From a virus: a stretch of 64,000 nucleotides of DNA. Location: UHGV virus genome UHGV-0084588; one strand, given 5' to 3'. Of the stretch, positions 3,001 through 18,708 are shown piece by piece. The notes beneath the pieces are model-generated. The model was given only the letters and a program-made list of their open reading frames with translations, was not told where the DNA came from and searched no databases. Within the stretch, counting starts at the first letter, position 1. Every line of letters begins with the position of its first letter. The position numbers were made by a program, and so were the translations under genes.

Positions 3001-3601
3001 CGTTAGGATTAAGGTGGTGTTGGTATAGTTCTTCATCGAAAATCTTTTTACCGTTCTCGTAAATCAGGTTAGTGACTTCGGTGAAGGCCGCATCTAACTC
3101 TGTTGAACGCTGAATGATTTTCTTGCGGATATCGTTCAACGCTTTAACGACCTCGTCCCTCAGAATCGCTTCTTCTAAGTTAGCAGGGGGGTCGATTGGT
3201 TGAATAACCGGCGCGTACGCCATTAACTCCGACCAGTCCACGTTACGTGGGTCTTTCAGGTCAGTACGAACTAAGAACTTCCCGATTTCAGATTGCGGTA
3301 CACGGTATTGACGTGCTACCCCTAAAATCTCATATTCGATTTCTGTTGCAGTAAGCAACATAAACCCGCCATAAATCTGATCTTGTTCAGCTTCTGCGAG
3401 TTCTTTAAAGTAATAGCCTAAATAGTAGTCCAACCCCTCAATCAGAGTACGACGTCCGTTAGGCGCGGTATCGTCGGCTACTGTGAGTTTTAATCCGATA
3501 CGATAAAAAGGTCCTTCAGGCGGAATGACCACGTTAAATCGGTTAGGGTACGTCGTTGTGCTTAGCGTACCGTTAAACTGCGCCGCGTCTTCTCTCGGCA
3601 T
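1..3601 (-). CDS. Large tail fiber-like / tail structural protein, C-terminus cut by window start (>=1200 aa)
   Basis: Manual reverse-strand translation from ATG at 3601..3599 (GGAG about 8 nt upstream) stays open to position 1; absent from the ORF track only because the stop lies outside the window. Contains KVHTHT motif; no enzymatic motif recognised. Confidence 0.55.
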   Translation of the reverse strand, partial: MPREDAAQFNGTLSTTTYPNRFNVVIPPEGPFYRIGLKLTVADDTAPNGRRTLIEGLDYYLGYYFKELAEAEQDQIYGGFMLLTATEIEYEILGVARQYRVPQSEIGKFLVRTDLKDPRNVDWSELMAYAPVIQPIDPPANLEEAILRDEVVKALNDIRKKIIQRSTELDAAFTEVTNLIYENGKKIFDEELYQHHLNPNAHQYTTNDVGALPVLGRAVDATKAFGLTIDQLATLMGSAGIEQSDVEQLMGEALGTVYGRWGTTNGNELTFKTPGGHIISIRGDKWLITSPQPLVIKADQDNNESGLAVEFSAGLNTLWVHSGSEQDVLAPVYNSVYLVTPEMVNMYLTSVTLLEANAYFKSSDTVKPYGTAKQSNPLTLNANIPTATESVYGVFSITNIATSVALGTAISQKAVTELKDRLDLYVDDDYTVNGKGFVKTGDNMVLTLTKADFGIDKMNNTTPIAKPVTKALANVLKNKSLKVHTHTTADLDNVPIGSATVDGILQLWDAIDTTNDKAVTSRQGWLFAKEIKKVSDKLNTLLPAWTTAGSKYTNNSILPILSMGNYEGYGKNMDALQMVIGVQQGKLYALISSKSALPGTEGIYYAVAGLKNDKSLGEIYKTTFRYKPKGLETNYPGVELKEITVTGTEAFIAKGSDDNYYLVKLNGSMDYTKHTDVRLVTFSEFVSETTWEFVPNMFMDRVVIADNGVYVLRTMLMADLKNNSLVDYIKDTPQPMFRVGLLRLNKTDRFEQVDLSSTRKIGKCADLVEPGAFDVDNPNTKRLAYFTAEGKALWTVNLQLTRGVSRWITPVVKDGHLLTVGVSGVCLGFSSTKGTTFGPWNGAYRLDLLTGEVGLETTNIFPIKIDTTGCYLKDGTKIELKWKWATRSSGYMADNRICVGDMVYSCCCSTEKQLAPSLHYQKLPEGVSYLDYVKLSAGYEGQSTFENRINPVVGSVWKPSMTFPLFFPGTNKVWLKHQKTAYFIEAEYDKDTTYGYPGYGGFGPTSRRVEKKANEYGVLTNIPLVVTPDIPKGLLDGAYFIGAESKPCKVVYGTTTVASDRLSIDAAEWAKLTNIVQSSQFSGASNGNAYERISVAKTKKNNYSLSFWVLGQTMSGGPLCIAIVSLIYKDTDGVNKFAFYFFQVKPTITNGVIRFVSSEARMMTFREKVASNAINLSPTAFNGELKQRSGQVFLYSQDGQ

Positions 3602-3695: not shown

Positions 3696-6600
3696 CTAAG
3701 TACGATCCCCTAACTGCTTCCCGTTAAGTTCTCGTTTCAGTACAGCCAGAATCCACTTCCACGCTTTACTCGTGATGTGGTACGGGTTGCGTTTCTCCAT
3801 TAAGAACTGACTTTCGCCGCTACGGAGTTCGAAACTCTGTGCATTGAGTTGATCTTGACGGACGCTTTTCTCGTCAGTGACATCTAACGAACAAGCGAAG
3901 TTAAGTTCATAACCTTCTGGATTATTGCCGGGTGGTTCTAAGACAATATAAATGTCCTGACCTACACGTAAGTCCTTTGGCGTAAGAGTAATCGCTTTAC
4001 CTGTATCAGAGGCGGTCGAAAGCGCAAAAGATACGCTATCAATAGCCGATACATACGGGTCCTTCCCGGCATCACCGATAATCACTTTACCCGGCCAGTT
4101 AGACTTCACCGTCCCGGCCACTTTTGCAACGCGATACTGCTGTTTATCAGCACCTTGTGCAAAGCGTAAAATGAGTTTATGGCGATAACGACTCGCAGCA
4201 GCTTTAGTCGTGCTCCACTCATTATTCCAGGAAGCGTTGAGTTCACCTTTCTTGGCCATCAAGGCACCACGAGACAGCTTACGGTCAAAGAACTGCGCAG
4301 GCAACTGACCGTCATGGGAAACAGCAACACTTCCCTGTCCGGTTGGCAGCGCGATGCTTTCTGTAACGCGGTATTTTTGACTAACCTCATAAGTCGCAGG
4401 GTCAATCACAGACTGACTAAAATCAACGTCTTTGGTATCAGCCAAATACCCAACGGACGAATCCAGATACGATTCGAACAACGAACGTAAGTAATGGTAC
4501 TTATCAATGTCGACGTTACTCGTAGCCGGATCAATCAGCGCGTGACTAATCGTTACACGGCATTTCGCAGACAGTTCTTTAAACGACAATCCCACACCGT
4601 CGCCAGTGAAATAATCCACTAAATCGAACGGGAATTGAATCTCCAGCTGTCGATGTTTAACTGTTGTCGTTCCGAACTGTGAGAACGTCAGTGCTAAACG
4701 TAATACCCGACTGTTTACGTTGTAACGATAGCGAATCATGCCACGAGGTGCATGGTTTGCAGAAATTTTATCTCGACCGGCACCCCAACCTATCAAGTCG
4801 AGCGTCGCCGCGTTGGTTTCCTCACCGTTGAACAACACATCCTTAAACGTTGCGGCCACTGCCGTTTCCCCAGACTCCTCCATCACTAACGGAATATCCG
4901 TAACAGCAGAATCTGAACGGGAACCAATCCCCAACTTACAGGTTTTGGTAGTTAGGTCAATGCGCAGATAGCGACGTTTAACGCTGCTACCTTGCGTTGA
5001 CGTGCATAGAACCAAATCCGGCGCAGCAGCAAGGGCTTGCGTTCCACCAACATCGTCAACATCGAACGCAAACGAGCCTTCGAATGTCGGTGCGTTGTTT
5101 TCTTTCGGGTTAAATGGTGTAAACCAACAATACGGCGTAGCACCTTCAGGTATCACAACGTATTGAAGACTCGACTTCACGTTTTGGTTGTGTGCGTAGG
5201 TATAAAGGCCGCGACTGACAAGATGGAAAACATCCCCTGTAGCGGTTGCTAACGGTTTCCTAAAGATACACGCTCTTGGTTCAGCAATAGCACGGTTTAA
5301 TAACGGCAGCCGTGGGTTATCCGTTAACGCCCAGTCAACAGCGCTGAGTCCGTGTGCCTTACGAGTGCTGATGTGCTCGCTAACTTCCGCACTTTTCCCG
5401 AAATCAAACGTGGTTTCAAACCCCACAGTTTTATTCGCGTAAGACTGACCAGGAACGATATCAACATATCCGATATAACCGCGCTCTGGGTCAACGGCAA
5501 TACTCTGAATCGGTTCAGCACGCGAATACAGAGAGCCTGTGAGCATGTTAACGTATAAATAGTGACGAACCCCTACGTGCGTTGTAACAAACTCCTGGAG
5601 AAGCTCTACGCGCGTTTCAGGACCACTGAAATAAACGGGGTAATCACCATCGTAAACTTCGAACTGTACCGCTGCGGATTTAGTCGTGTCGCTACACTCG
5701 GCTTTAACCGCCACTGTGTAATTTTCAACGTCTGCTGACGTTTCATACACCGCGACGAGTGGAGACTCGCCTGAAGCGGCCTGGATACCGTTAATGTAAA
5801 CCGTAACCTGACCACCCCCAGCAGCATAAACCCAGAGCTTCGGTTGGTATGCTTTTACACGCGTTTTTGCCAATACAGTAATAACTGACTGGTCACCCAT
5901 CTGTGTAGCAGTCTTACCTACCGGGACAGACTGGAACCCCATCAATGGCGGTTCTTCAATACCCGTCCAGTTGATCCCCGTACCGTTACTCACCTTACCC
6001 GTAGCCCAAGTCAGCTCAAGTTGGTTATTCGGTGAGAACCAGTTAAACATCGGGGTGGTTTGCAGGTCAATCGCACCGGTAACGGTACTGTCACCTTTCG
6101 TGCCGTCCAGCAAATAGAAATATTTCAAATCCTGAACGGAGATTGCCGTACCCTGGCTATTAAATCGCCAGTCTGCGCCTTTTACAGCAGCGAAATCCGT
6201 GACTGTTCCTTCTTTCGCATTTGCAATTGCCGCAGCGACCACACTTAAACGTGCCGAAAGCTCTTTTAAGATGTTCGGTACCACTGCACGGTTTTCAACC
6301 AAACCGTTCTGGTTAGTTGCATAACGACCAATACCGTAAACAGATTGAGAAGCTTTATAAATGCCTAACTCCGACCAATCGTGATGATGGCCTACATCTG
6401 CTAGACCGCTAACCGCCTTAGTTAACTCGGTTGACAACGGTTTGTCAAGGTCTGCGGTGTTATCCGCTTGCCCTAACCCCAGGTCAGCTTTCGTGATTGT
6501 CCTGGAGCCGTCATTCATTGGCTTACCGTTAATCATGGTCGTTTTAGCCACATACCCTGATAGGTCGGTCGAATAAGGTGTTAATGACGCTGGCGTTGCT

Positions 6601-7877
6601 GCAACCCCAACCGTTTCTGTACCTTTACCAGTTTTAAGCTTAACAACACCTTTTTCAGCGGTTGTCGCTTTCGTCGGGTCGATAGTACCCACGATAGGAT
6701 CGGTCCGAGAGCCTTTACCGGTGAAGCTAATCCCATTACGGCCTTCGATGTACACCTTCGAGTCATCAGGGTCACCGCCGCCGCTCCCGCCAGCATCAGG
6801 ATCTTGTTGGTATTCCATCAACGCCGTGGTAGTCAGTAACGGGTTACCATTCAGGGTGAGTTTGTTCATCCCTAAAGCATCGCCGGTTGACTCGATACGT
6901 AAGGTGTTTTTACCAGCACGCCAGTTAATGTAACGTCCTGCACCCGTTCCCTCCAGATGCCCTACCGCCAACACCACAGAACCGTTGGATTTTAACGTAA
7001 AGCCATCATTCGCAAAAATGATTTCTGACTCACCGTTTTTTGAGCGGAATTGTGCACGGTTTCCTGACACCGTACAGTTAAACACACCCCGTACTTCTGA
7101 AGAAATCCAGTGGGAGATATACGTGTCAATAACTGACTGTGGTAAACGAAACGCTTTCAGTTCATCCGTCAGTGCTTTCAACTTTAACCCGTACGCCATA
7201 AAGGTGTCGGGTGTTTTCAAGTTAACAGGATGTGCGCTAATCTGTGCAGAAGTAGTTTGGTGCGGGTTGGTTTCCGCGATGTGTGCCGGGTAGTTAAATG
7301 CTTCGATTTCTTTACCCAGAGCGGTGACTAACGCTTTAACTTCGGCTAATTTATCTTTAATTAGTTGGTTAGCGTCGTCGGTTTTCAATTCAACATCGTG
7401 GACCGCTGACGCTAAATATTTTTTGTTCAGCAAATCCGCCCAGGACGTTGCCGCAGGCGTAGCCGGGTATAACGACGGTCTGCCTTCTAATAACAGCCAA
7501 TCAGCGCTGACTGGGTTATTCAAATATTTCACCAGCTCATCGAGAATGTCAACAAACGGGTCGTAGAACGTACCACCGAGCATTTGTCCTTCAAAGGTTA
7601 CGATGCCCTTGATGGATGGGTTGATAAGGTGTACCCCACAATACACGTTGGCTGCTACCGAGTCATCCAGTTCTGTCAGTTGGTATTGCAGTTCGTAGTC
7701 CACCCCACGACTCAGTGGGGTGGTTGAACCTGGTTGTCTGACGACTAAATCTTCAAAGAACGGGCGATGGTCTAAAATCACCACCCGATCGTTGTTGTTT
7801 TCTGACCCGATGATACGCTCCTCTAAGAAGTGATTCTCGGTTTTCGTCCCCCGAGGATCGTAAGGATACGCTTTCAT
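3696..7877 (-). CDS. Tail fiber-like protein (about 1393 aa)
   Basis: Track ORF 3696..7880; the first M is TTG, ATG is at 7877 with AAGGAG upstream. Gly/Ser/Thr-rich, GGSGGGDPDD linker, HHH motif (VGHHHDW). Lies 13 nt downstream of the 1440-aa gene, so probably co-transcribed. Confidence 0.6.
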   Translation of the reverse strand: MKAYPYDPRGTKTENHFLEERIIGSENNNDRVVILDHRPFFEDLVVRQPGSTTPLSRGVDYELQYQLTELDDSVAANVYCGVHLINPSIKGIVTFEGQMLGGTFYDPFVDILDELVKYLNNPVSADWLLLEGRPSLYPATPAATSWADLLNKKYLASAVHDVELKTDDANQLIKDKLAEVKALVTALGKEIEAFNYPAHIAETNPHQTTSAQISAHPVNLKTPDTFMAYGLKLKALTDELKAFRLPQSVIDTYISHWISSEVRGVFNCTVSGNRAQFRSKNGESEIIFANDGFTLKSNGSVVLAVGHLEGTGAGRYINWRAGKNTLRIESTGDALGMNKLTLNGNPLLTTTALMEYQQDPDAGGSGGGDPDDSKVYIEGRNGISFTGKGSRTDPIVGTIDPTKATTAEKGVVKLKTGKGTETVGVAATPASLTPYSTDLSGYVAKTTMINGKPMNDGSRTITKADLGLGQADNTADLDKPLSTELTKAVSGLADVGHHHDWSELGIYKASQSVYGIGRYATNQNGLVENRAVVPNILKELSARLSVVAAAIANAKEGTVTDFAAVKGADWRFNSQGTAISVQDLKYFYLLDGTKGDSTVTGAIDLQTTPMFNWFSPNNQLELTWATGKVSNGTGINWTGIEEPPLMGFQSVPVGKTATQMGDQSVITVLAKTRVKAYQPKLWVYAAGGGQVTVYINGIQAASGESPLVAVYETSADVENYTVAVKAECSDTTKSAAVQFEVYDGDYPVYFSGPETRVELLQEFVTTHVGVRHYLYVNMLTGSLYSRAEPIQSIAVDPERGYIGYVDIVPGQSYANKTVGFETTFDFGKSAEVSEHISTRKAHGLSAVDWALTDNPRLPLLNRAIAEPRACIFRKPLATATGDVFHLVSRGLYTYAHNQNVKSSLQYVVIPEGATPYCWFTPFNPKENNAPTFEGSFAFDVDDVGGTQALAAAPDLVLCTSTQGSSVKRRYLRIDLTTKTCKLGIGSRSDSAVTDIPLVMEESGETAVAATFKDVLFNGEETNAATLDLIGWGAGRDKISANHAPRGMIRYRYNVNSRVLRLALTFSQFGTTTVKHRQLEIQFPFDLVDYFTGDGVGLSFKELSAKCRVTISHALIDPATSNVDIDKYHYLRSLFESYLDSSVGYLADTKDVDFSQSVIDPATYEVSQKYRVTESIALPTGQGSVAVSHDGQLPAQFFDRKLSRGALMAKKGELNASWNNEWSTTKAAASRYRHKLILRFAQGADKQQYRVAKVAGTVKSNWPGKVIIGDAGKDPYVSAIDSVSFALSTASDTGKAITLTPKDLRVGQDIYIVLEPPGNNPEGYELNFACSLDVTDEKSVRQDQLNAQSFELRSGESQFLMEKRNPYHITSKAWKWILAVLKRELNGKQLGDRT

Positions 7878-7890
7878 CAAAAAATTCTCC

Positions 7891-10800
7891 TTAATCGCGA
7901 ATGATTACCGCCTGCACTTTATTGTTGGTGTCGATAAACGACATTACGCGCTCCTTGTTAAGATAAGGAGGTATCGGTAACGCAGCGTAATCCGCCAGGC
8001 TGTTATTAAATTCAGTTGCCACTAACGCATTAAGCGTTTCGGGGTCTGAGCTGACACCGGCCAATTCCATGACGCGTACTCGATTTAATGAGGAATAGTT
8101 GCTAATATAGTCCAACAACGTACCGTAGACTTTATTCGCAGTTGCGCTGTCTGCTGTAGAGCGGATGTTGGCACGAACCTCATCCTCATAAAGTCCCCCT
8201 AAACCGTAGTAAATAGGGGTATACGGATCATTAACAATAGGTTCGATATTGAACCCGGTTAAACGGTCGACTAATGGGATTTTCTGCGTAGTTCCCCCTG
8301 CTGCCGTACAGCTTACGTATTTATCTGTCGTGGATAAAAACACCACGATAGTATACACAGTGCCAGCTAAAGTCAGCGATGCATTAAACGTTATTGCGTT
8401 GTTTGCACCACGGGTGTGGGTAAACGTTACGTCAGGTTGTAATGAACTCCACGGTGCAGCTGTAACACGCTTCGTTGGTGTGAAACCTACCACTACCGAT
8501 TTCCCGCTACCGAAGTTCAAACCGAACCCTGCGTAACAATATTCACCGTTACTGTCAGTTAAACGATAACCGCGAGTGATGAGTAATGACAACCGCATAA
8601 ACTCGCCGTCGGTGTTCTTCCAACAACCTAAAACAGTTTCTAACACTGTTCCGGTTTTTGCGTTGCTTTCTGTTTCCCAACTTACCCGCATTCCTGCGTT
8701 TTTGAAAGTCGGGAATAAGTTGTGAATAAAACCATGAAGGTTATCACTTACCCCTTTCGCATCGAAAACCCACTTTGATGCGAGCTGGTCGTATTTCACC
8801 CCGTCTAAGGCTCTATACTGTCCACCGACGACATAACGCCAATCTGCTTCACCACGTACTACTGCCTGGAGTCCCGAAGCCCAGCAGGGCGCACCTACCG
8901 TTAAGTTAGCTAACCCAAGCACTGCACGTGTCGTGGAGCGGTGAATATGCGCGTTATCGTCAGCAGCGTGATCTTTCAGTTCACGGAAATCGTCCAGCCG
9001 TGTGACGTTACGCATCTCTGTAACGAACACTTCAGAAAGGTCATTGACGCCGATTAATCCCACACGCGTCATGGTATCCGTTTCAGCCTGACTGTAGCTG
9101 TCGTGAATAATGTACTTCGCTTTGTTGTCAACAATATCAACAAAAATCCCCGCGTAGATTTCTGTATTCAACTTCGGAAAACGTTCACTGACGTTAATCG
9201 TCGTCAACGGCACGGTGTATGTTTCGCCACCGATAAAATACGTTGATGCTGGAAGTGTAACCAGTATTTTGTCTTTGACCGTAACATCAATTAAGTCGTT
9301 ACCAGACTTACCAAAACGTATAATGTCGAGACGTGCCTCCGAGTCAACACCCCCGACAGCACTTTCCAATTTTTCAATCTGGGTAGTCTGCGCCATTACC
9401 ACACTGCCATCGAGTGCTAAAGTCGCGTCGTCCACATCCAGACCAAATTTAATCAAGCCACGTTTCGCGGTGGTTGCGTTCCCGGTACCAAATGCGGTAA
9501 ATGGGTGGTGGTGTACTTTAGGCGAATATTTATCTAACTCCGCCTGCTGTGCTGTGGAGATCGGCAAATCGACATCGGGTGTATTCGCAACGTTACCCAA
9601 ACCAAAGGTAATTTTGTCGATAGTAACTGAGCTGGTAAGTTGCATGTCGTTAATGTACGATTTAGCTGCAACTAGTTTACCGGTAAACTCAGCGTCCAGT
9701 TTTTCAATCAATGCGGGGGTTGCTGCGAGATTTTCAGCCGTACCGAATTCGTCCGTTAACTGCCAACACGCTAACGTAGTAACGTCTTCGGCAACCGGAA
9801 GAATAAACGTTGCTACGAATGGCGATGCTTTAATCCCACTACCGGTAAGTTCCACCGTAGCTGTAGATGCACCGTAGAATAATCCCGTACCACCTGCAGT
9901 ATTGCCCGGCAAATACGGCGCTACCGTGGTGGGGTCTAAGAGCTTCTTACCACGCCACAGTAATCCTCGGTCATCGGGATATAGCACAAGCTGGTTGTCG
10001 CCCGCTTGCAACGTTACCGGGTTGTTACCCACGTTAACATCAGTAGAACCTTGGCCGATGAACTTAATGGATTTCGGGTCAACGACAAACTGGGCACCTA
10101 AACGGGTCCCGTCAACGACATCGGGCGCTTTCTTAATGGTAACCGTGTTACCTTTATTCCCCGAGCTAATAGTGACGTTGTCAGCAACATTACCGATCAA
10201 TGATTTAAAGTGGTGGCTATTCTCCAATGCTTCTAGTGCAGCGTCCATGTTAGTGAAGTTAACACGTGCACTATATGTCTTGCCGTTTATGGTAATAACG
10301 ACATCAAACACGTTCCCTGTGCGTTTCAGTTGAAAACGCAGCGTAAAATCCCCATCCGGTATTGCTGGATTAGGAGCTTGGGAAAGATACTGAACTTCCG
10401 GTGTGGGATTCGAAAAACCGTTCAGTTCCAACTTAACGCCGACTTTACCCGCAGAAATTTCACCTGTAAGCTGGATAAATTTTCCAGAGTTAGTACCAGG
10501 TTTCTGATAGAAACGTAGGCTAACCGTACCGACGGCTTCATTACCAGACGCTGTTTTACGTCCGGTAACAATAAAGTCAATATCTTGCAGGTTAGCAGGT
10601 ACCGCATTAAAAGAAGTGGTGAATCCACTCTTCGTTCCTGTGTAACGAAGCGCACCGTGATACCTGTGACCATTACTAACGTAGCTTTCGCTAAAACGAG
10701 GACTCACGTATTTCGACATTGACACCGGGTCAACTTCCGTCGTGAACGAAGTAAAACCGGGCAGCGTTCCAATAGTTCCGTTAGCCGTTTTCGTAGCTGA

Positions 10801-12213
10801 CGTGCGTAATAGTTTCTTTTGTGCTGTCAACGTCGCTTGTGTTGGATACTTAGCATTAACATAGTCCGTTAACTGCGGCTTCGTTTTTCCGTAAGCTAAT
10901 GCTGCATCCGACGCAATGCCGTTCAACTCTAACGCACGGATCGGACCCCACGTATCTGTGTGTGGGTTGTCCTTACGTGTAACGTGTTCGTGCGCAGGCG
11001 CATTACGATACAGCTGCTCAACTAACTGATGATACTTAACTATTAACTGGTAAACATCGTTATCGACGTCGGGCTCCGGCGCACCGGGTAAAGAACGAAT
11101 TTGAACATAATCGTTTTCAGCCGCATACCAGTTCAGGTTAATGTTCGTTTTAGACTTCAACCATTTGGCTACATTCGTTTTCGAATACCCTGCCGAGAAC
11201 TCATCAGGCGGCGTATCGACGTTGAATGTATAATCCATGGTCTGTTTATTTGTTTTTACTACGATTACGTAAACGCCGTTTCCGGGCTGACGGGTTACAC
11301 TAAAATCGATATCGTTTTTTAACTCATCGTCAGTTAAACCGTTGATTAAAGTATAATCGTAGTTTGTTGAACCACTGCCAATAGCGACAGTTAAGACCAG
11401 TGAGATTTTGCGCTGTTTTAGCTGTAACCGTAGAATGCTTGCACCGCCGTTGGCATAACAGAGCATCCAATCGATCTGCTCGTTCGGATTCAACTTTGTC
11501 ATGTCTGGCAGAATAGCAGGAATTCTGTGTTTCACCGACAGGGAATAGTCGTTAAAGGTTGTCGCGTTATAACTCAGGCTATAACGGTGGCGAGCTGTGT
11601 TGTAGGTGAAACCGCCTTTATTATCGTACGCGGCATACTGCTCGGAAGTGATAACCTTGCTATTAGCACGATATTCCAAATCCAGTGTGTTGCGTGCGAT
11701 TGGGTTAAGCCGACTCACGACTTCCCCTAACGAATCGCCTACCCCAGCAATGGCCTGCATTAGCTCCAGTTCACCTTTCCAATTCTCCCAATCGAACTGG
11801 ATATCGACCGGTGGAAAGTAAACGTCTCCGATAACGGTGTCCCACTGACACGCGGAAGGGTATTTACCTTTATTAAGCTCGCGCTCTGCGGTAATCTGCT
11901 CTTGGGTTGCTTCACCGCAACCAACGGCATGGTAATCTACAGTAAAGTTCGATTTGTATTTGTCATTAACAATCCAAATCATCCCGTGAATGAGATAGGC
12001 TGTGCGCAACATACCAGTCTCGTACGGGTGTGTAATAACGTAATCGTCGCCTAAGGTCAGTATTTTGCCGCCGCTCTTGACCACCAGGGATGTGGTGAAA
12101 AAAGGGGCGTGGGCAGGTACCAACATTCGGTATTTCGTACCAATGACGGCGACCGCTTCACCGGTTATTTTATTCCCCGGTTTTTTGAAGTGTGGGTCTA
12201 AGACGACAGCCAT
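7891..12213 (-). CDS. Tail fiber-like protein (1440 aa)
   Basis: Track ORF with ATG at 12213 preceded by TAGGAG; very large Thr/Gly/Asn-rich protein with VHHH motif; second of three tandem giant genes. Confidence 0.6.
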   Translation of the reverse strand: MAVVLDPHFKKPGNKITGEAVAVIGTKYRMLVPAHAPFFTTSLVVKSGGKILTLGDDYVITHPYETGMLRTAYLIHGMIWIVNDKYKSNFTVDYHAVGCGEATQEQITAERELNKGKYPSACQWDTVIGDVYFPPVDIQFDWENWKGELELMQAIAGVGDSLGEVVSRLNPIARNTLDLEYRANSKVITSEQYAAYDNKGGFTYNTARHRYSLSYNATTFNDYSLSVKHRIPAILPDMTKLNPNEQIDWMLCYANGGASILRLQLKQRKISLVLTVAIGSGSTNYDYTLINGLTDDELKNDIDFSVTRQPGNGVYVIVVKTNKQTMDYTFNVDTPPDEFSAGYSKTNVAKWLKSKTNINLNWYAAENDYVQIRSLPGAPEPDVDNDVYQLIVKYHQLVEQLYRNAPAHEHVTRKDNPHTDTWGPIRALELNGIASDAALAYGKTKPQLTDYVNAKYPTQATLTAQKKLLRTSATKTANGTIGTLPGFTSFTTEVDPVSMSKYVSPRFSESYVSNGHRYHGALRYTGTKSGFTTSFNAVPANLQDIDFIVTGRKTASGNEAVGTVSLRFYQKPGTNSGKFIQLTGEISAGKVGVKLELNGFSNPTPEVQYLSQAPNPAIPDGDFTLRFQLKRTGNVFDVVITINGKTYSARVNFTNMDAALEALENSHHFKSLIGNVADNVTISSGNKGNTVTIKKAPDVVDGTRLGAQFVVDPKSIKFIGQGSTDVNVGNNPVTLQAGDNQLVLYPDDRGLLWRGKKLLDPTTVAPYLPGNTAGGTGLFYGASTATVELTGSGIKASPFVATFILPVAEDVTTLACWQLTDEFGTAENLAATPALIEKLDAEFTGKLVAAKSYINDMQLTSSVTIDKITFGLGNVANTPDVDLPISTAQQAELDKYSPKVHHHPFTAFGTGNATTAKRGLIKFGLDVDDATLALDGSVVMAQTTQIEKLESAVGGVDSEARLDIIRFGKSGNDLIDVTVKDKILVTLPASTYFIGGETYTVPLTTINVSERFPKLNTEIYAGIFVDIVDNKAKYIIHDSYSQAETDTMTRVGLIGVNDLSEVFVTEMRNVTRLDDFRELKDHAADDNAHIHRSTTRAVLGLANLTVGAPCWASGLQAVVRGEADWRYVVGGQYRALDGVKYDQLASKWVFDAKGVSDNLHGFIHNLFPTFKNAGMRVSWETESNAKTGTVLETVLGCWKNTDGEFMRLSLLITRGYRLTDSNGEYCYAGFGLNFGSGKSVVVGFTPTKRVTAAPWSSLQPDVTFTHTRGANNAITFNASLTLAGTVYTIVVFLSTTDKYVSCTAAGGTTQKIPLVDRLTGFNIEPIVNDPYTPIYYGLGGLYEDEVRANIRSTADSATANKVYGTLLDYISNYSSLNRVRVMELAGVSSDPETLNALVATEFNNSLADYAALPIPPYLNKERVMSFIDTNNKVQAVIIRD

Positions 12214-12282: not shown

Positions 12283-13545
12283 GTGACTACTGCTTATCAA
12301 GTGCGGCCCGACAGCGCTTTTGGCTTCTCTCGAGAGTCCCGTACCTGGGGAGCCATCGATGTCACGCAACCCTTAACTACGTTGTGTTCAGACTACCACA
12401 CCTTTGAGATCGGTTTAAGTGCACTTGGTAAAGACTATACGTTAATCAGTCAATACCATCTTGCTGAACTACAAAACCGAACAGACACTTTACAAGATTG
12501 GTTAAATGAAAAGGCCGGAAACGTCATTCCCACTCTAAAAGCCGGATTGCCGAAACTGGAATTCAGTTGGGCACATTACCAATCAATTAATGCCGATGTA
12601 CCTGTCGAAACATATCTGTGTCCACCAGGGTACCACCACAGTCAAGATTTCAGCCTAGACGATGCTGATGACGTTGTCGTCGTTTGTGAGGACAAGTGGA
12701 AAGACAAATACCGTAATAGTGTGCTGTACAACATTAACGGTCAATGGGTACCGCACCAGACGGATACCGTAGGTGTGCGATTGCCTGGGGCCGGTAAAAT
12801 CGTACGGAGAGCATGTACGCCAGATATTGGCTGTATGGTTTTTGGTCAGCTAGGGAATGTTAAAACCTATCCAATCGCCAACCTTACGCTAAACAAGCTC
12901 GACACTACACGCGACTATTACTCCACGTTAATGATATCGCTGCCTGAGTCTATTACGGGGAAAACCGTGGGTTTCGTCATAGGCGGATTGTTACGTTGGT
13001 TGCCCCCGGACGGTTATTTCTCTGACCGTGCGATCATGATTTCTTTACCGAATTTTGATCTTGCACGGACCGTTCTGGAAACCCGCCGTTATTACGACTG
13101 GGATAGCATCGGTGTAGGGGATTTATCATCGCCTACCAACGTTCAACGTATTCGTAACCCTGAAACACTGAAGGCGCTTTTACTCCACGAATCCTCTTTT
13201 ATCTTTACGGTAGATAATCCGTATTTAGAAGAAGAAGTTGTGGGTGTTTCGCATAACGCCGTTTGGGGACGCTGTTACCTCAAGGACCCCAACGATCCTG
13301 ATTCTGAAAAACCATTAGGGTACTTAAATAATCGATTTGGTAAGACGGTAGGTTATTGGCCTACGTGGGAGGAAGGTGAGTGGGTATTTAACACTACCGA
13401 ATTCGACAGTCAAAACTACGTCTTTCGTGAAGCCCGGTGGTATAATCAGAAGAAGATTAACGATGCTCAAGCAATCGTTGGTCCATTCGGTCCCTGGGAA
13501 AAAGTGTATTTAGAAATGCATCGCTTTAAAGCACGAAAAAAATAA
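12283..13545 (+). CDS. Hypothetical protein (420 aa), divergent from the fiber genes
   Basis: Track ORF with GTG start, GAGGA about 10 nt upstream; ends at a bidirectional terminator; no motif recognised. Confidence 0.45.
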   Translation: MTTAYQVRPDSAFGFSRESRTWGAIDVTQPLTTLCSDYHTFEIGLSALGKDYTLISQYHLAELQNRTDTLQDWLNEKAGNVIPTLKAGLPKLEFSWAHYQSINADVPVETYLCPPGYHHSQDFSLDDADDVVVVCEDKWKDKYRNSVLYNINGQWVPHQTDTVGVRLPGAGKIVRRACTPDIGCMVFGQLGNVKTYPIANLTLNKLDTTRDYYSTLMISLPESITGKTVGFVIGGLLRWLPPDGYFSDRAIMISLPNFDLARTVLETRRYYDWDSIGVGDLSSPTNVQRIRNPETLKALLLHESSFIFTVDNPYLEEEVVGVSHNAVWGRCYLKDPNDPDSEKPLGYLNNRFGKTVGYWPTWEEGEWVFNTTEFDSQNYVFREARWYNQKKINDAQAIVGPFGPWEKVYLEMHRFKARKK

Positions 13546-13551
13546 AGTAAC

Positions 13552-13594
13552 CTCCTACCCTCTAAGAGGGTAGGAGTAGCACGTTTTTTTTTTT
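13552..13594. terminator. Bidirectional intrinsic terminator between convergent genes
   Basis: CTCCTACCCTC-TAAG-AGGGTAGGAG stem-loop with A-run upstream and T11 downstream. Confidence 0.7.
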
Positions 13595-13597
13595 CGC

Positions 13598-13825
13598 TTA
13601 GTCTTTTTTGTAGACAATCGCGTTACCGTGCAGTTTGTTGTTGCCGGAAATACCGATAACTTTGAATGCGTCGCCGCCAATTTTTTCGGCTTCAGCAGCC
13701 AGTTTACCAGTTACATGATCAACGGTATCGCCGAAAGCGCTGACGTTACCGATTTTCTTAAACTCTTCTGGAATATGCTCAGCAGAAGAGAACTCTTTAA
13801 TAGACATAACAGCTCTCCATTTCAA
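13598..13825 (-). CDS. DUF1471 (YdgH/BhsA/McbA family) domain protein, no signal peptide
   Basis: 75 aa; KKIGNVSAFGDTVDHVTGKLAAEAEKIGGDAFKVIGISGNNKLHGNAIVYK matches the BhsA-type domain (recalled E. coli BhsA: ...GTISANAG...LAQKADEMGAKSFRITSVTGPNTLHGTAVIYK). GGAG RBS before the ATG; no N-terminal hydrophobic leader. Confidence 0.6.
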   Translation of the reverse strand: MKWRAVMSIKEFSSAEHIPEEFKKIGNVSAFGDTVDHVTGKLAAEAEKIGGDAFKVIGISGNNKLHGNAIVYKKD

Positions 13826-13875
13826 AAGGTTAGTGGTCTAAGACCGACGTGTGTTACAACCGAAGCATAAGATAG

Positions 13876-13895
13876 CTCCTCCCCGTAGGGAGGAG
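13876..13895. other. GC-rich stem-loop without T-tract
   Basis: CTCCTCCC-CGTA-GGGAGGAG in the intergenic region between two minus-strand genes. Confidence 0.35.
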
Positions 13896-14013
13896 TAGAG
13901 TGCGCGAAAAAAGTGGCCTGCTTAACTAAACGATGGGTTTAAGAAAAGTGTTGATAAAAAGTTTTACCAACGTCAGGTCACAATATATAAAAACAACGTA
14001 AGAAAAAGGGGAA

Positions 14014-14979
14014 TTATTGCGGAGGTGATGTCGGGCCATGTTTACCTTGGTGAATGTGAACGCTAAAGGTAATACCAGAAATAACGGCATCTTTAACCGT
14101 AAAGACACCGACGCCTTTGCCAGTACCGCCGTATTTGAAGTTCTTAGCGATTTCCAGATTACCGGTGAACATCGCTTCATTCCCTTCTTGTTTAAAGTTC
14201 GGCGTTTTAAATGTTGTCGAACTCCCTGCTTCCGTTAACCAGGTTTGTGTTTTAAACGTAACGGATTTCGCTGCTTCCGTATTGCGAACTTCGCATTTTT
14301 CATTAATTGTTTTCGTTTCCAGGTTAATAGAACGCTTTGAATAAATGAACGCATCTTCTTTGTTGATGTTCACTTTTGAAAGCATCGCATTCTCAAAACC
14401 TAAATCGTCTTCCACCGAGTTAATGTAATACTTATTCCCTTTGTGGTCAACACACTGCCACGTGCCATTTGCATTATCAAACTGAAATAACCACGCCGCT
14501 TTCTCGCCGTTCACCATACTTGTTCTTAGCGTGATATGTTTGTCAATCGTCGAGATATTCAACACATACGCATTGGACAGGTCATCCGCCATCTGGTTTT
14601 CAGGGTCAGCAGACCACGCGTAAACCGCATCCTCTAATCGCTTAACGTTAGCGAAGTTCAGATCAATCCAAAAATAAATATCGGTTTTCCCCAAACGTAA
14701 CAAGATAACGTAATCTTCTCGTTTAACGTCAGGGGAATTAATTCGGTTGGAGTTAAACTTCCACCACTTTGCTGTTATCGTGTTACCCGTCTTAATGGTT
14801 AGGTTATCTGTTGCACCAGACGTTTCATGCGTCTTTTCAGTTGCTGAAGAAACAGATTGCACCACGGTAGGGTTAGCAAAGTTGGTTTCAATTGGTATCA
14901 CTTTTACCCGATCTGTACCACGGGGTTTGTCTTCCGCGACGATACCAATTGAGAAAAAATCAACACTGGATTTCTCCAT
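14014..14979 (-). CDS. Hypothetical protein (321 aa), possibly virion-associated
   Basis: Track ORF; Thr/Asn/Lys-rich, beta-rich-looking composition; Gly-rich C-terminus (GGTGKGVGVF); no enzymatic motif. Confidence 0.5.
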   Translation of the reverse strand: MEKSSVDFFSIGIVAEDKPRGTDRVKVIPIETNFANPTVVQSVSSATEKTHETSGATDNLTIKTGNTITAKWWKFNSNRINSPDVKREDYVILLRLGKTDIYFWIDLNFANVKRLEDAVYAWSADPENQMADDLSNAYVLNISTIDKHITLRTSMVNGEKAAWLFQFDNANGTWQCVDHKGNKYYINSVEDDLGFENAMLSKVNINKEDAFIYSKRSINLETKTINEKCEVRNTEAAKSVTFKTQTWLTEAGSSTTFKTPNFKQEGNEAMFTGNLEIAKNFKYGGTGKGVGVFTVKDAVISGITFSVHIHQGKHGPTSPPQ

Positions 14980-16166: not shown

Positions 16167-16721
16167 ATGTTTCAAACTGAACTGAAAAATGAAATTATCC
16201 AAACCCTTGAAAAAGGCGTAGGCGAACATTTCTTTGTCCGTCCTTATACCGTACTGACCAATACCATTATCCAGCCAGGTGCGATGATAGTAGGGGTAAG
16301 TGTACAAGCTGTAGAGGAAGCCCCGCTGCGTCGTAACATCACACGTAAAAACCATATTCCATTTAGAACGGGTTTTACAAATTACTTTCAGAGCTTACTG
16401 AAAGATAGCGTTTGGAAAACAGGCAGCTTCTTCCACGAAGGGAAGACTTCCACGCTGGTTTATAAAGAGAACACCAAGTATCTGGTTGATTTTCTCTTAG
16501 CGCGTCAATACGATTTCTTTCCTTCACCCACCGGTCTCACCCCAGACAATCCGAGTAAGCTGTTAAACCAAGACGAAGCTGAAGCACTGCGTGCACAACT
16601 GAGAAAAGAAGGTTGTGATGTCGATGACCATGAAACCTTAATCGGGGTTGCTAAAGCACACGGTTGGTATACCGTGCGTGTATTTGGGCGTCAGATGTTG
16701 TTCTTAGCTTATAACGTTTAA
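16167..16721 (+). CDS. Hypothetical protein, tandem paralog family member
   Basis: 184 aa; AAAGGAG RBS; C-terminus ...AHGWYTVRVFGRQMLFLAYNV. Confidence 0.55.
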   Translation: MFQTELKNEIIQTLEKGVGEHFFVRPYTVLTNTIIQPGAMIVGVSVQAVEEAPLRRNITRKNHIPFRTGFTNYFQSLLKDSVWKTGSFFHEGKTSTLVYKENTKYLVDFLLARQYDFFPSPTGLTPDNPSKLLNQDEAEALRAQLRKEGCDVDDHETLIGVAKAHGWYTVRVFGRQMLFLAYNV

Positions 16722-16732
16722 AGGATGGTATC

Positions 16733-17860
16733 ATGCATATCTGTCATAACGCACCGTCGCACAAACTTTATCTTGAATTGCTTTTCGAGGACTACAAGAA
16801 AGGGGTGCCGAAAATATTACTTAGCATCCCGCCTGATACGCAAACTGAATTGTTCGGTCGCGTTTTTGGTTGTACCGTTAACGCTTTGCCAGAACCAATC
16901 TGTGCGCCTGTGGATAATTGTGTTTTCGACGAACGAATTGAGGATTTTCAATTCACCTTTTACGTAAACGATTCTTTACTGTACGATAAACTCTATGTTC
17001 GTGAGTTGAAATCAAATCAGCGGTTAATGTACCGCGTCTATCCGCCCCACAGAGGGTCGATACTAGAGTATAAAATCAGACGGCTACCTTACGAGGGTGT
17101 GAATTTACTCGACCAGCAGGATATGGCTTTTCTGGAAGAACTCTGTGGATTTGAAATTGAGAAGATTCACGTAACCCAGGAAATATCCCGAAACGTACCT
17201 AGTCGTCATACCCCTTACGGTGGGTTTCCGTACGAGTTCACCGACACAGGACTAAGGCTCGTAACCGAATTTAACGACGTAATGTATTACGCAGTGTGTA
17301 TTGAACGTAAAGTAGTGGAGAAAGAAATGACAAGTACATTGAAAGAAGAATTAGCCCAATTCATTCGTGATGTTGAAGAGAAAAGCAAGAGCGATCACAT
17401 TTTCTCACAACGTTATCCTGAACTTATTGACGAAACCACCGATAGTGTCGTCGATGGTATACGCATTTTCCCAAGTGGTCTTGCAATTTACCGACTGCCT
17501 AGTGTTAATCAGCTTAAAGTCATGGAAATGCTAAAAGACGTTTTAGCAGAAGCAGGTTGGGAATATCGTTTCGATTGCAATTTCGAAGGGATGGCGTTAT
17601 TCGTTACAAAGAAAAATTATACGTTGTCAATCGATCTGCCCAAAAGTCAATATTACAGTTTCTTCCCGAAAGCGGATGACCGCACTGAAAAAGAACCTGC
17701 GATGTTACTTGATGCGGCAGAGTCCAATACGCTAATGATACATCTGCGGACGATTGATAAAGAGTTAACTACCAGTCATTTAACGACGATCGGTAAAGAT
17801 TACGGTTGGAAATCTGTCGAACCGTATGGCAGTCAGCTACTGTTTGTTGCTGACCTCTAA
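16733..17860 (+). CDS. Hypothetical protein, tandem paralog family member with internal duplication of the GW motif
   Basis: 375 aa; two copies of the motif: ...AGWEYRFDCNFEGMALFVTKK (internal) and ...YGWKSVEPYGSQLLFVADL (C-terminal). Confidence 0.55.
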   Translation: MHICHNAPSHKLYLELLFEDYKKGVPKILLSIPPDTQTELFGRVFGCTVNALPEPICAPVDNCVFDERIEDFQFTFYVNDSLLYDKLYVRELKSNQRLMYRVYPPHRGSILEYKIRRLPYEGVNLLDQQDMAFLEELCGFEIEKIHVTQEISRNVPSRHTPYGGFPYEFTDTGLRLVTEFNDVMYYAVCIERKVVEKEMTSTLKEELAQFIRDVEEKSKSDHIFSQRYPELIDETTDSVVDGIRIFPSGLAIYRLPSVNQLKVMEMLKDVLAEAGWEYRFDCNFEGMALFVTKKNYTLSIDLPKSQYYSFFPKADDRTEKEPAMLLDAAESNTLMIHLRTIDKELTTSHLTTIGKDYGWKSVEPYGSQLLFVADL

Positions 17861-17886
17861 TAAGTGAAACTACACTTTCTCTAACT

Positions 17887-17909
17887 GCCGCGCTTTAGTC
17901 GCGGCTTTT
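17887..17909 (+). terminator. Weak intrinsic terminator / attenuator
   Basis: GCCGCG-CTTTAGT-CGCGGC followed by TTTTG. Confidence 0.3.
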
Positions 17910-17928
17910 GTTAAGAAGGAAAAAAGAA

Positions 17929-18708
17929 ATGAAAATCCATTTAGACGACCTCTTTAAAACTGAACCGTACATGGTTAAAGGTTCGCTGGCTTCATTGTTG
18001 CTAGACGATAGATACCATCGAACGCTACAATTACAATCGGTAGAAACCGCGCCAACGGGAATTGAAGACGTGGGTCTTTACCAACGTATCACTCACACAC
18101 GTGGAGAATATCGTCGATATAAACCCGATACACTGACCGTTAAGCTTTGGCAAGTGGGCACAGGCAAGGTATTAAGTTATCGCGCCGTTGGTCTGTACCA
18201 CGTTGAACGTGCTTACACATGGTTAGAAGAAGTTAAAGAAATGGATTACGACCAGCTAAGCAAAAGACTTCGTGACCATAACGCCAGTTTACCGTTACGT
18301 AATTATTTCTCCACAGTTGAAAATAGTCGTTGTTTCGTTTCTCGCGAATCCATGATATTACCTGGAACTGACGTTCAGACGACGCTAAAAGACGTGGTTG
18401 TAAAGAAAGTCTTTCATGAGTCTGAACACGTTGGGTTTCGTATCTATTTAACCCACAAGAGACCATTTACCGTGATTCATGTTGTTACCGTACCCGAAGG
18501 ATCAGCAGTCTCTCGGGAACTTCCTGATGCTCGCGACCGTTGCCCTAATGAGCCGCTCTACTTAATGTCAGGAACAAAATCAACCGCGTTGATGTCTCGT
18601 TACAGCATGATAGATGTTGTTGACGCTGCTATGAAGCTAGGTTGGAAAGAAGTGCAGCAACACGGTAAACAGTTGCTGTTTATTGCCGATGTAAAACTTA
18701 ATTATTAG
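17929..18708 (+). CDS. Hypothetical protein, tandem paralog family member
   Basis: Track ORF 17908 starts at TTG; ATG at 17929 follows AAGGA; C-terminus ...LGWKEVQQHGKQLLFIADVKLNY. Confidence 0.55.
   Translation: MKIHLDDLFKTEPYMVKGSLASLLLDDRYHRTLQLQSVETAPTGIEDVGLYQRITHTRGEYRRYKPDTLTVKLWQVGTGKVLSYRAVGLYHVERAYTWLEEVKEMDYDQLSKRLRDHNASLPLRNYFSTVENSRCFVSRESMILPGTDVQTTLKDVVVKKVFHESEHVGFRIYLTHKRPFTVIHVVTVPEGSAVSRELPDARDRCPNEPLYLMSGTKSTALMSRYSMIDVVDAAMKLGWKEVQQHGKQLLFIADVKLNY

Follow-up and report, generated by a model that had tools for sequence, protein, structure and literature searches.

The window examined here, a stretch of 64,000 nucleotides of the virus genome UHGV-0084588, carries on its minus strand a small gene for a DUF1471 protein that possesses no leader. 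An open reading frame (ORF) of 75 codons (13598..13825) is obtained if translation is counted from a TTG. No ribosome-binding site accompanies this TTG, and six codons further in lies an ATG, at 13807, that is preceded by GGAG (Table 1). GGAG or GAGG occupies the equivalent aligned position in the relatives described below, and the equivalent methionine (MSIKEF...) is the start in 20 of 20 phage homologs. From the ATG, the product has 69 amino acids (aa), a mass of 7.4 kDa, an isoelectric point of 6.3 and no cysteine. An original prediction, made from the sequence alone, had proposed a protein of 75 aa initiated by GGAG and ATG; the initiation signals stand and yield 69 aa, while the larger size belongs to the mechanically defined TTG frame. 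The prediction had also reported the lack of a hydrophobic leader, on the proviso that no upstream in-frame start with a signal peptide had been missed. The frame is closed by a stop 10 codons upstream of the ATG, and therefore no upstream start with a signal peptide is possible; with the TTG devoid of a ribosome-binding site, a longer, leader-bearing form is ruled out. The maximum hydropathy of the N-terminus is 0.4, compared with more than 2 in most full-length host homologs, and neither the window protein nor any phage homolog has a hydrophobic N-terminus. The Sec signal peptide that characterizes the cellular DUF1471 family is thus absent. That signal and a periplasmic or outer-membrane location define the biology of the cellular family, not the DUF1471 domain itself.

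A hidden Markov model search with Pfam PF07338 (DUF1471/YdgH-BhsA) matched residues 17-67 with a score of 38.2 bits (E = 1.4e-9), above the curated gathering score of 27, and the alignment spans profile positions 2-55 of 55. Of the NCBIfam models, that for BhsA is the best, with only its mature part aligned (positions 30-85 of 85), and the models for YbiJ, YahO, McbA and YhcN are likewise aligned through their mature parts only. The BhsA equivalog model (NF047859) scores 46.8 bits against a cut-off of 90, and the scores for the other four also fall below their respective cut-offs. By this measure the window protein is not a BhsA ortholog, and the GenBank label “BhsA” on its relatives over-states the kinship. 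Among proteins of solved structure, two YahO entries are closest in sequence, with residues 9-68 aligned. Eight homologs went into an AlphaFold2 model; with a predicted local distance difference test score of 89, it places strands at residues 4-6, 16-26, 47-54 and 59-68, a turn or helix at 9-11 and a helix at 29-42. The DUF1471 fold has been described as a short N-terminal strand, a short helix, a strand, a long helix and two strands, with the sheet order 2-4-3-1 (PMC4092069), and the predicted structure displays this fold. When the model was compared with the Protein Data Bank using Foldseek, the solved DUF1471 structures 4evu, 2m2j, 2ma8, 2jna and 2noc were at the top, with template modeling (TM) scores of 0.7-0.78. 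This top set represents YdgH domains III and I, SrfN, STM0082 and YahO; RcsF and the dodecins come next. The Pfam match, the NCBIfam matches to mature parts and the fold agree with the alignment to a BhsA/McbA/YdgH-family domain that had been proposed, and the window protein amounts to a complete mature DUF1471 domain with nothing in front. It keeps the hallmark residues of the family (K-IG-VS...KA...G...G-N-x-x-H-G-x-A-IYK), among which the loop G-N-N-K-L-H-G is kept in the phage proteins. No second DUF1471 copy was found within the window. A DUF1471 domain made without its signal folds properly (PMC4092069), so that folding in the cytoplasm is feasible. YdgH without its signal is, on the other hand, non-functional in the host, a periplasmic location being needed (PMC11705850).

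The protein belongs to a catalogued phage family. PHROG 8068, a family of proteins of about 70 aa with no leader, matches residues 1-69 over profile positions 1-70 of 70 (E = 4.5e-32); PHROGs lists this family with unknown function. Sequence similarity identifies the gene as a homolog of gp172 of Salmonella phage SPN3US (SPN3US_0172, YP_009153466.1). A tblastn search of 50,697 phage records found 60 that match, all of them jumbo phages of 197-251 kb, with Salmonella, Escherichia, Erwinia, Cronobacter and Proteus as the named hosts. When 1.84 billion representative proteins were searched exhaustively with HMMER, 91 matches were obtained; the top four have 68-78 aa and no hydrophobic N-terminus, and most of the rest are of 80-90 aa and carry a leader. 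All 13 loci used below for the analysis of synteny, and all phage-type database matches, encode leaderless proteins of 67-78 aa, and the host-type matches are mostly of 80-90 aa with a hydrophobic leader. Leaderless clusters were located on contigs of up to 190-225 kb, and seven IMG/VR loci all lie on contigs of 107-246 kb. The window protein is 99-100% identical to metagenomic proteins, 80% to that of SPAsTU, 77% to that of pEa_SNUABM_9 and 45% to SPN3US gp172. Relatives in GenBank and RefSeq are annotated as “DUF1471 domain-containing protein” (SPN3US gp172) or as “putative multiple stress resistance protein BhsA”, and SPAsTU, Stratton, Kwan, Wellington and pEa_SNUABM_43 carry one or other of these labels. 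We found no literature in which these jumbo-phage genes are treated as DUF1471 or BhsA homologs.

Two observations on the distribution of the family may be added. Erwinia phage Wellington possesses a second leaderless DUF1471 gene (gp189, 186 aa; 2787-3347 of the locus) directly after the first, in which an N-terminal DUF1471 domain (29.7 bits in Pfam) is followed by an acidic, low-complexity tail of about 120 aa. This copy suggests that the family has been duplicated and extended within phages. Further, many assemblies that bear the label Salmonella enterica include a CR5-type leaderless DUF1471 protein, on contigs of some 224 kb, which points to complete jumbo-phage genomes inside bacterial isolate assemblies, as a carrier state or as contamination.

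The gene is flanked by a baseplate gene and a gp171-like tail gene (Table 1), and two fibre/baseplate paralogs of about 1400 aa adjoin the locus; the proposed position inside a tail fibre block is thereby confirmed. In SPN3US, gp171 is essential and tail-associated (PMC5105663; PMC10052503 Table S2), and gp173 has been assigned to the tail together with gp168-170 (PMC10052503). We compared the window with 13 loci from the genera Seoulvirus, Erskinevirus, Machinavirus, Wellingtonvirus and Derbicusvirus. The order is constant throughout: baseplate gene, spacer, DUF1471 gene, convergent gp171-like gene and large fibre/baseplate paralogs, with 184-403 nt between the baseplate and DUF1471 genes and about 50 nt between the DUF1471 and gp171-like genes. 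The window gene occupies the same conserved place, between gp173-like and gp171-like genes, as its counterparts in the SPN3US-like jumbo phages.

Within this junction the gene has the appearance of a self-contained cassette. In phiKZ, a TATG with the G as +1 is necessary for late transcription by the non-virion RNA polymerase (PMC4666361). A TATG lies upstream of the DUF1471 gene, and the bases around it vary freely in the 13 aligned spacers while the four bases themselves do not change. From the motif and its conservation we regard it as a putative late promoter core; by this motif match, a start at the G at 13866 would give a 5' untranslated region of 58 nt. In most relatives the TATG is preceded, 15-16 nt upstream, by TTTAC, which resembles the phiKZ middle-promoter element. 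In the window the segment between hairpin and TATG that contains the TTTAC and a T-run has been deleted. The hairpin itself is the sole conserved structure in the upstream spacer, with compensatory changes at 4 of 7 pairs among nine phages. The T-run that follows it is poor in the window and present in most relatives. This hairpin is predicted to close the baseplate-gene transcript and to insulate the DUF1471 gene. Beyond the 3' end of the gene, the second hairpin is predicted to serve both the DUF1471 gene and the convergent gp171-like gene. Its equivalent is found in 13 of 13 loci, with the A-run and T-run flanks in 12, and in Wellington it stands between the two DUF1471 genes. No sigma-70 promoter was found near the gene, counts being at chance level. 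A search of 13400..14200 for Rfam families returned only one sub-threshold chance match, and apart from the terminator hairpin no conserved RNA structure was detected in the upstream spacer. The arrangement of terminator, promoter motif, ribosome-binding site, coding sequence and terminator, set between conserved structural genes that are adjacent in relatives, appears to be that of a moron-type insertion, the promoter being assigned from its motif and conservation.

The spacer holds two further conserved blocks (Table 1). The core of the first, GCCACTTTTTTC, is near-invariant in nine loci from Seoulvirus, Erskinevirus, Machinavirus, Wellingtonvirus and the window lineage, and in the three Derbicusvirus loci it has diverged. 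The window contains the exact motif a single time, with looser matches at chance level. The second block is near-invariant in nine loci from four genera and the window lineage and is again diverged in Derbicusvirus. It has the layout of the TTTAC-N15/16-TATG that stands upstream of the gene in relatives, the general form being TTAC-N15-T(G/A)TG, and the phiKZ middle motif is AAanTTACc near -24 (PMC4666361). It may represent a second, middle-type promoter, although this reading is weak because the pattern is not enriched in the window. Both blocks and the hairpin could together specify an RNA of about 100 nt, or else supply the DUF1471 gene with a further promoter and leader. Both blocks are conserved although the flanking proteins are only 45-80% identical. 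Neither GCCACTTTTTTCGC nor TTAC-N15/16-TATG is enriched in the window, and both were rejected as a general promoter consensus of this phage.

Table 1. Features of the DUF1471 locus and its immediate neighbours, in window coordinates.
Feature	Coordinates	Strand	Basis and details
gp171-like neighbour, 420 aa, convergent	12283..13545	plus	76% identical to SPN3US gp171; PHROG 3337
11-bp GC-rich hairpin with A-run and T-run flanks, predicted bidirectional intrinsic terminator	13552..13576	.	terminator scan
Leaderless DUF1471 coding sequence	13598..13807	minus	ORF list and translation; 69 aa plus stop; MSIKEFSS...IVYKKD
Ribosome-binding site GGAG	13815..13818	minus	read from sequence; 7-nt spacer to ATG
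TATG, putative phiKZ-type late promoter core	13866..13869	minus	invariant in 13/13 aligned loci, five genera
GC-rich hairpin, predicted terminator of baseplate transcript	13876..13895	minus	terminator scan
Conserved non-coding block TCGyTTr-N8-GCCACTTTTTTCGC	13904..13933	minus	between baseplate stop codon and hairpin
Conserved block cTTAC-N15-TGTG, possible second (middle-type) promoter	13979..14002	minus	alignments; just after baseplate stop codon
Baseplate assembly protein, SPN3US gp173 homolog, 321 aa	14014..14979	minus	PHROG 3216, E = 9e-114; 62% identical

Comparison with outgroups sheds some light on how the cassette arose. In the nearest of these, Vibrio phage pVp-JHP1101, the gp171-like gene and the baseplate gene converge on a gap of 320 nt in which there is no plausible ORF. 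In Goslar a convergent gene lies 52 nt after the gp171-like gene, with nothing in between; this gene has no detectable similarity to the window baseplate protein, and its homology is unconfirmed. The synteny, taken with the absence of the gene from the Vibrio and Goslar outgroups, places its insertion here in the ancestor of the enterobacterial clade. A host origin is reasonable because DUF1471 is confined to Enterobacterales (PMC11705850). The GC content of the gene is 42.9%, against 45.1% for the window. Where synonymous sites are not saturated, the pairwise ratio of nonsynonymous to synonymous rates (dN/dS) is 0.03-0.26, and the gene is under purifying selection. This ratio, the 60 matching phage records and the full-length match to PHROG 8068 show that we are dealing with a real gene and not a chance ORF. 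In a neighbour-joining tree built on 55 columns the phage-type sequences form one clade, with negligible support (10 of 200 bootstraps), and their best distances to host proteins are 0.66-0.99, compared with at most 0.58 to the four nearest phage-type neighbours of each phage protein. The phage copies form a leaderless group of their own in this comparison, and neither tree nor distances allowed a host donor paralog to be named. The window-like GC content, the mutual nearness of the phage copies and the synteny across five genera suggest that the capture was old, and a recent transfer is ruled out by synteny, composition and divergence. The proposal of horizontal acquisition from an enterobacterial host therefore survives as to the source, with the qualification that the event was not recent.

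The alleles of the gene are distributed in a mosaic manner. The window carries a “KKIG” allele that is common to Erskinevirus, Machinavirus and SPAsTU, and not the diverged SPN3US allele. The window protein resembles those of SPAsTU (Seoulvirus; 80%) and pEa_SNUABM_9 (Machinavirus; 77%) far more than that of SPN3US, which is also a Seoulvirus (45%). For the gp171-like and gp173-like proteins on either side, identity to the counterparts in all three phages is 62-79%. The SPAsTU allele is close to that of Erskinevirus (dN 0.07). The dS between the window and pEa_SNUABM_9 is unusually low, 0.68, against about 3 to SPAsTU, and the DUF1471 gene is the only part of 13000-14500 that is matched by megablast in the phage collection, which does not contain the phage of the window itself. 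This pattern suggests either the exchange of a cassette between phages or a fast-evolving SPN3US lineage.

The codon usage of the gene sets it apart from its surroundings. As a measure we used the fraction of enterobacterial optimal codons (Fop). With a Fop of 0.735 the DUF1471 gene ranks at the top of 50 window genes, the other 49 having a mean of 0.52, a standard deviation of 0.06 and a maximum of 0.66 (z = 3.6), and none of 629 random 69-codon windows reached this value. In ten relatives the gene has a Fop of 0.72-0.88, compared with 0.54-0.61 for the flanking tail genes. The SPN3US genome provides a useful calibration: gp172 has a Fop of 0.881, against a mean of 0.57 for 59 other genes, and it lies above the top three of these, the major capsid protein gp75 (0.866), gp53 (0.847) and gp54 (0.824). 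Gp53 and gp54 are very abundant head proteins, and Fop tracks known abundance in this phage. Judged by its codons, the DUF1471 gene looks very highly expressed. This result fits an annotation by the SPN3US authors, available to us second-hand from a supplementary table, that gp172 is of “unusually high abundance in cell”.

The evidence on virions comes entirely from published SPN3US proteomes and concerns the homolog gp172; the paper on another relative, pSal-SNUABM-04, reports no proteomics. In a 2017 virion proteome gp172 was the smallest virion protein (7 kDa), with 6 spectra and 81% coverage, and it was missing from 47(am1) particles (PMC5694885). A 2020 study permits a comparison of preparations of differing purity (PMC7411985). 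There, a crude differential-centrifugation pellet with cell debris gave 13 spectra of gp172, wild-type virions from one caesium chloride (CsCl) step gave 6, and am59-supD particles from the CsCl step gave 3. Tailed virions purified by step plus buoyant-density gradients gave none, while tailless full heads gave 2. No spectra were obtained from the lower CsCl-step band, which contains debris, flagella, tails and proheads, nor from three tail- and prohead-rich preparations, in which gp171 was represented by 23-39 spectra and gp173 by 3-27 (PMC7411985). In 2023, triplicate virion and head tables that assign gp171 and gp173 to the tail, and that include contaminants with as few as 2-3 spectra, have no row for gp172 (PMC10052503). 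The gp172 signal thus drops with purity and does not follow the tail proteins, as expected for an abundant protein that co-purifies or is weakly bound. Taken together, the published proteomes lean against a stable role in the virion.

These results may be accommodated by the following model. The gene would be transcribed late, by the phage's own RNA polymerase, and translated at a level like that of a capsid protein. The product, unable to use Sec, would stay in the cytoplasm and would not be a fixed stoichiometric part of the tail. Because the hallmark residues are kept, and because YdgH needs the periplasm to function, we suppose that it would most likely bind a partner on the envelope side, of the kind bound by its relatives in the host, and that it would meet this partner only at cell lysis, or during a loose association with the baseplate region of progeny. 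It would then be a soluble, very abundant late protein that is released with the burst and acts on cell-envelope material or attaches weakly to particles. We favour tentatively the overall notion of an abundant, non-exported late protein released at lysis, and would put its chances at a little short of even. The last step, action on envelope material or attachment to particles, is the weakest and would deserve well below the confidence given to the model as a whole. In its specific form, in which a flood of the leaderless domain at lysis binds outer-membrane or periplasmic-face material of the burst cell, it is decidedly unlikely. If true, such a protein might, for example, mask receptors on debris and so spare the progeny, or condition neighbouring cells, and delivery by lysis would have taken the place of Sec export.

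Several considerations weigh against this model. Gp172 was found in CsCl-step virions, with the coverage of 81% noted above, and was labelled “Tail” by the authors. The low-mass region of the gels may not always have been analysed, a caveat that is the authors' own, and a 7-kDa protein is easily lost from gels, so that a true but weak attachment to virions is possible. The conserved residues may only maintain the fold, and the loss of function in signal-less YdgH shows that the compartment matters without revealing the activity of a copy in the cytoplasm. As an indicator of expression, codon optimality is indirect, and a gene this small offers only 68 codons for its estimation. The remark on high abundance is second-hand. 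Finally, the TATG is a motif of only four bases.

A somewhat unlikely alternative is that the protein is an assembly helper, or a loosely bound decoration of the baseplate or tail fibres, that is overproduced and mostly shed in purification. As a helper it would enable gp171, gp173 or the fibre paralogs to fold or to become attached. Small helper genes beside fibre genes are common in phages, and we know of no chaperone with a DUF1471 fold. The fixed place of the gene between an essential tail gene and a baseplate gene in five genera, the late-type promoter motif and the detection of gp172 in one-step CsCl virions, with the authors' tail label, are as this idea would have it. It fits poorly with the lack of gp172 spectra from the purest tailed virions and from each of three tail-rich preparations, when tailless heads gave 2. 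Outgroup phages, moreover, build homologous baseplates without a DUF1471 gene, and the divergence of the protein is unlike that of its neighbours, the window and SPN3US being 45% identical in the DUF1471 protein and 62-76% in its flanks.

It is unlikely, too, that the protein is a cytoplasmic host-takeover or counter-defence factor that acts stoichiometrically, for instance as a trap for a host protein or for a small signalling molecule, although the lack of an export signal and the very high inferred abundance would suit such a role. One version would exploit a fold that also builds ligand-binding oligomers, as in dodecins, and a cytoplasmic “sponge” for a small molecule or a protein, built on a dodecin-like fold, would be a second option. 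The predicted fold resembles dodecins and a selenium-binding protein, with TM scores of about 0.6-0.74, but likeness at this level is generic for small beta-alpha-beta-beta domains, and the YahO and YdgH domains are monomers (PMC4092069). The family does expand in phages, as shown by the second leaderless copy of Wellington with its acidic, disordered tail. Against this stand the promoter motif, which is of late type when takeover factors are usually early, and the lack of any known cytoplasmic partner for DUF1471 domains.

The original prediction had suggested a possible fibre accessory or adhesin module. In the form of a stable virion-borne protein that contacts the host envelope at adsorption, we consider this improbable. 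In its favour, the gene belongs to the tail module, virions yielded the SPN3US homolog with a coverage of 81%, and the envelope is where the host relatives operate, SrfN binding sulfated sugars weakly (PMC4092069). However, detection falls as purity rises, from 13 spectra in the crude pellet to none in the purest tailed virions and tail-rich preparations, and gp172 is absent from the 2023 triplicate set. Capsid-like codon optimisation misfits a low-copy part. Nor does the allele follow the host genus, the same type being present in Salmonella and Erwinia phages. Last, a nearly neutral passenger, a moron kept by linkage and without important function, would be in keeping with the moron-like architecture and the outgroups that have no such gene, but is very improbable given one locus kept in five genera, a dN/dS of 0.03-0.26 and extreme codon optimisation in every lineage.

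It was of interest to compare the tentatively favoured product, an abundant late protein released at lysis, and its gene with known systems. SPN3US gp172 and PHROG 8068 are alike in size (67-73 aa), in having no leader, in the place between gp173-like and gp171-like genes, in the layout of promoter and terminators and in extreme codon bias; the window differs from SPN3US in its “KKIG” allele and in its loss of the TTTAC/T-run segment. The host proteins BhsA/YcfR, YbiJ, YahO, McbA, YhcN and SrfN share the Pfam domain, the fold and the hallmark residues, and the window protein is collinear with the whole mature protein. Unlike these single-domain proteins, which are periplasmic, it has no Sec signal and scores below every equivalog cut-off, and it is encoded by a phage, probably under a phage RNA-polymerase promoter and not stress-regulated. 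Morons, which were defined for lambdoid phages, are independently transcribed, host-derived genes situated between conserved structural genes. The window gene resembles them in its own promoter motif and terminators, its place between conserved tail genes, its absence from outgroups and its host-derived domain. It departs from them in belonging to a lytic, phiKZ-related jumbo phage, in which a late promoter of the phage RNA polymerase would be used in place of expression from a prophage, and in having been retained long enough to span five genera. RcsF, an outer-membrane lipoprotein sensor, has the same alpha+beta fold (TM 0.84-0.87, normalised to the query), a likeness already noted for DUF1471 (PMC4092069). 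The window protein has neither sequence similarity to RcsF nor its lipobox and redox cysteines, and is not a member of that family.

The window gene is a new sequence in a phage family that is already catalogued and partly annotated. What is new is that the leaderless state is, as far as sequences reveal, universal in the phage clade, that the gene appears to be a moron-like insertion with a phiKZ-type promoter motif, that its codons are at least as optimal as those of the capsid gene, and that the proteomes, when combined, speak against a stable place in the virion. Few envelope proteins of Enterobacterales are induced by stress as strongly as the DUF1471 proteins, and to our knowledge no molecular partner has been described for any member of this family. 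A leaderless phage copy that has long been kept, and that is capsid-like in its codon usage, therefore amounts to a natural experiment, and the partner of the phage copy may reveal the role of the domain in the host. The analysis also draws attention to SPN3US gp172 and its relatives, which probably represent a very abundant late protein, in a model phage that is open to genetics. As to naming, the label “BhsA, multiple stress resistance protein” is an over-call when applied to the phage genes, and “virion protein” is not secure.

Two other features of the window were noted. At 16167-18708, near the baseplate gene, three consecutive plus-strand ORFs (184, 375 and 266 aa) constitute a small paralog family with a common C-terminal domain of about 110-140 aa, at 29-32% identity. 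At 3696-12213, the two minus-strand genes of about 1400 aa are mutual paralogs, are also paralogous to the SPN3US fibre/baseplate paralog family C, and have a mosaic make-up. In the 1440-aa protein the first 494 aa are 69% identical to SPN3US gp170 and 47% identical to SPAsTU, and the C-terminal half is about 43% identical to both.

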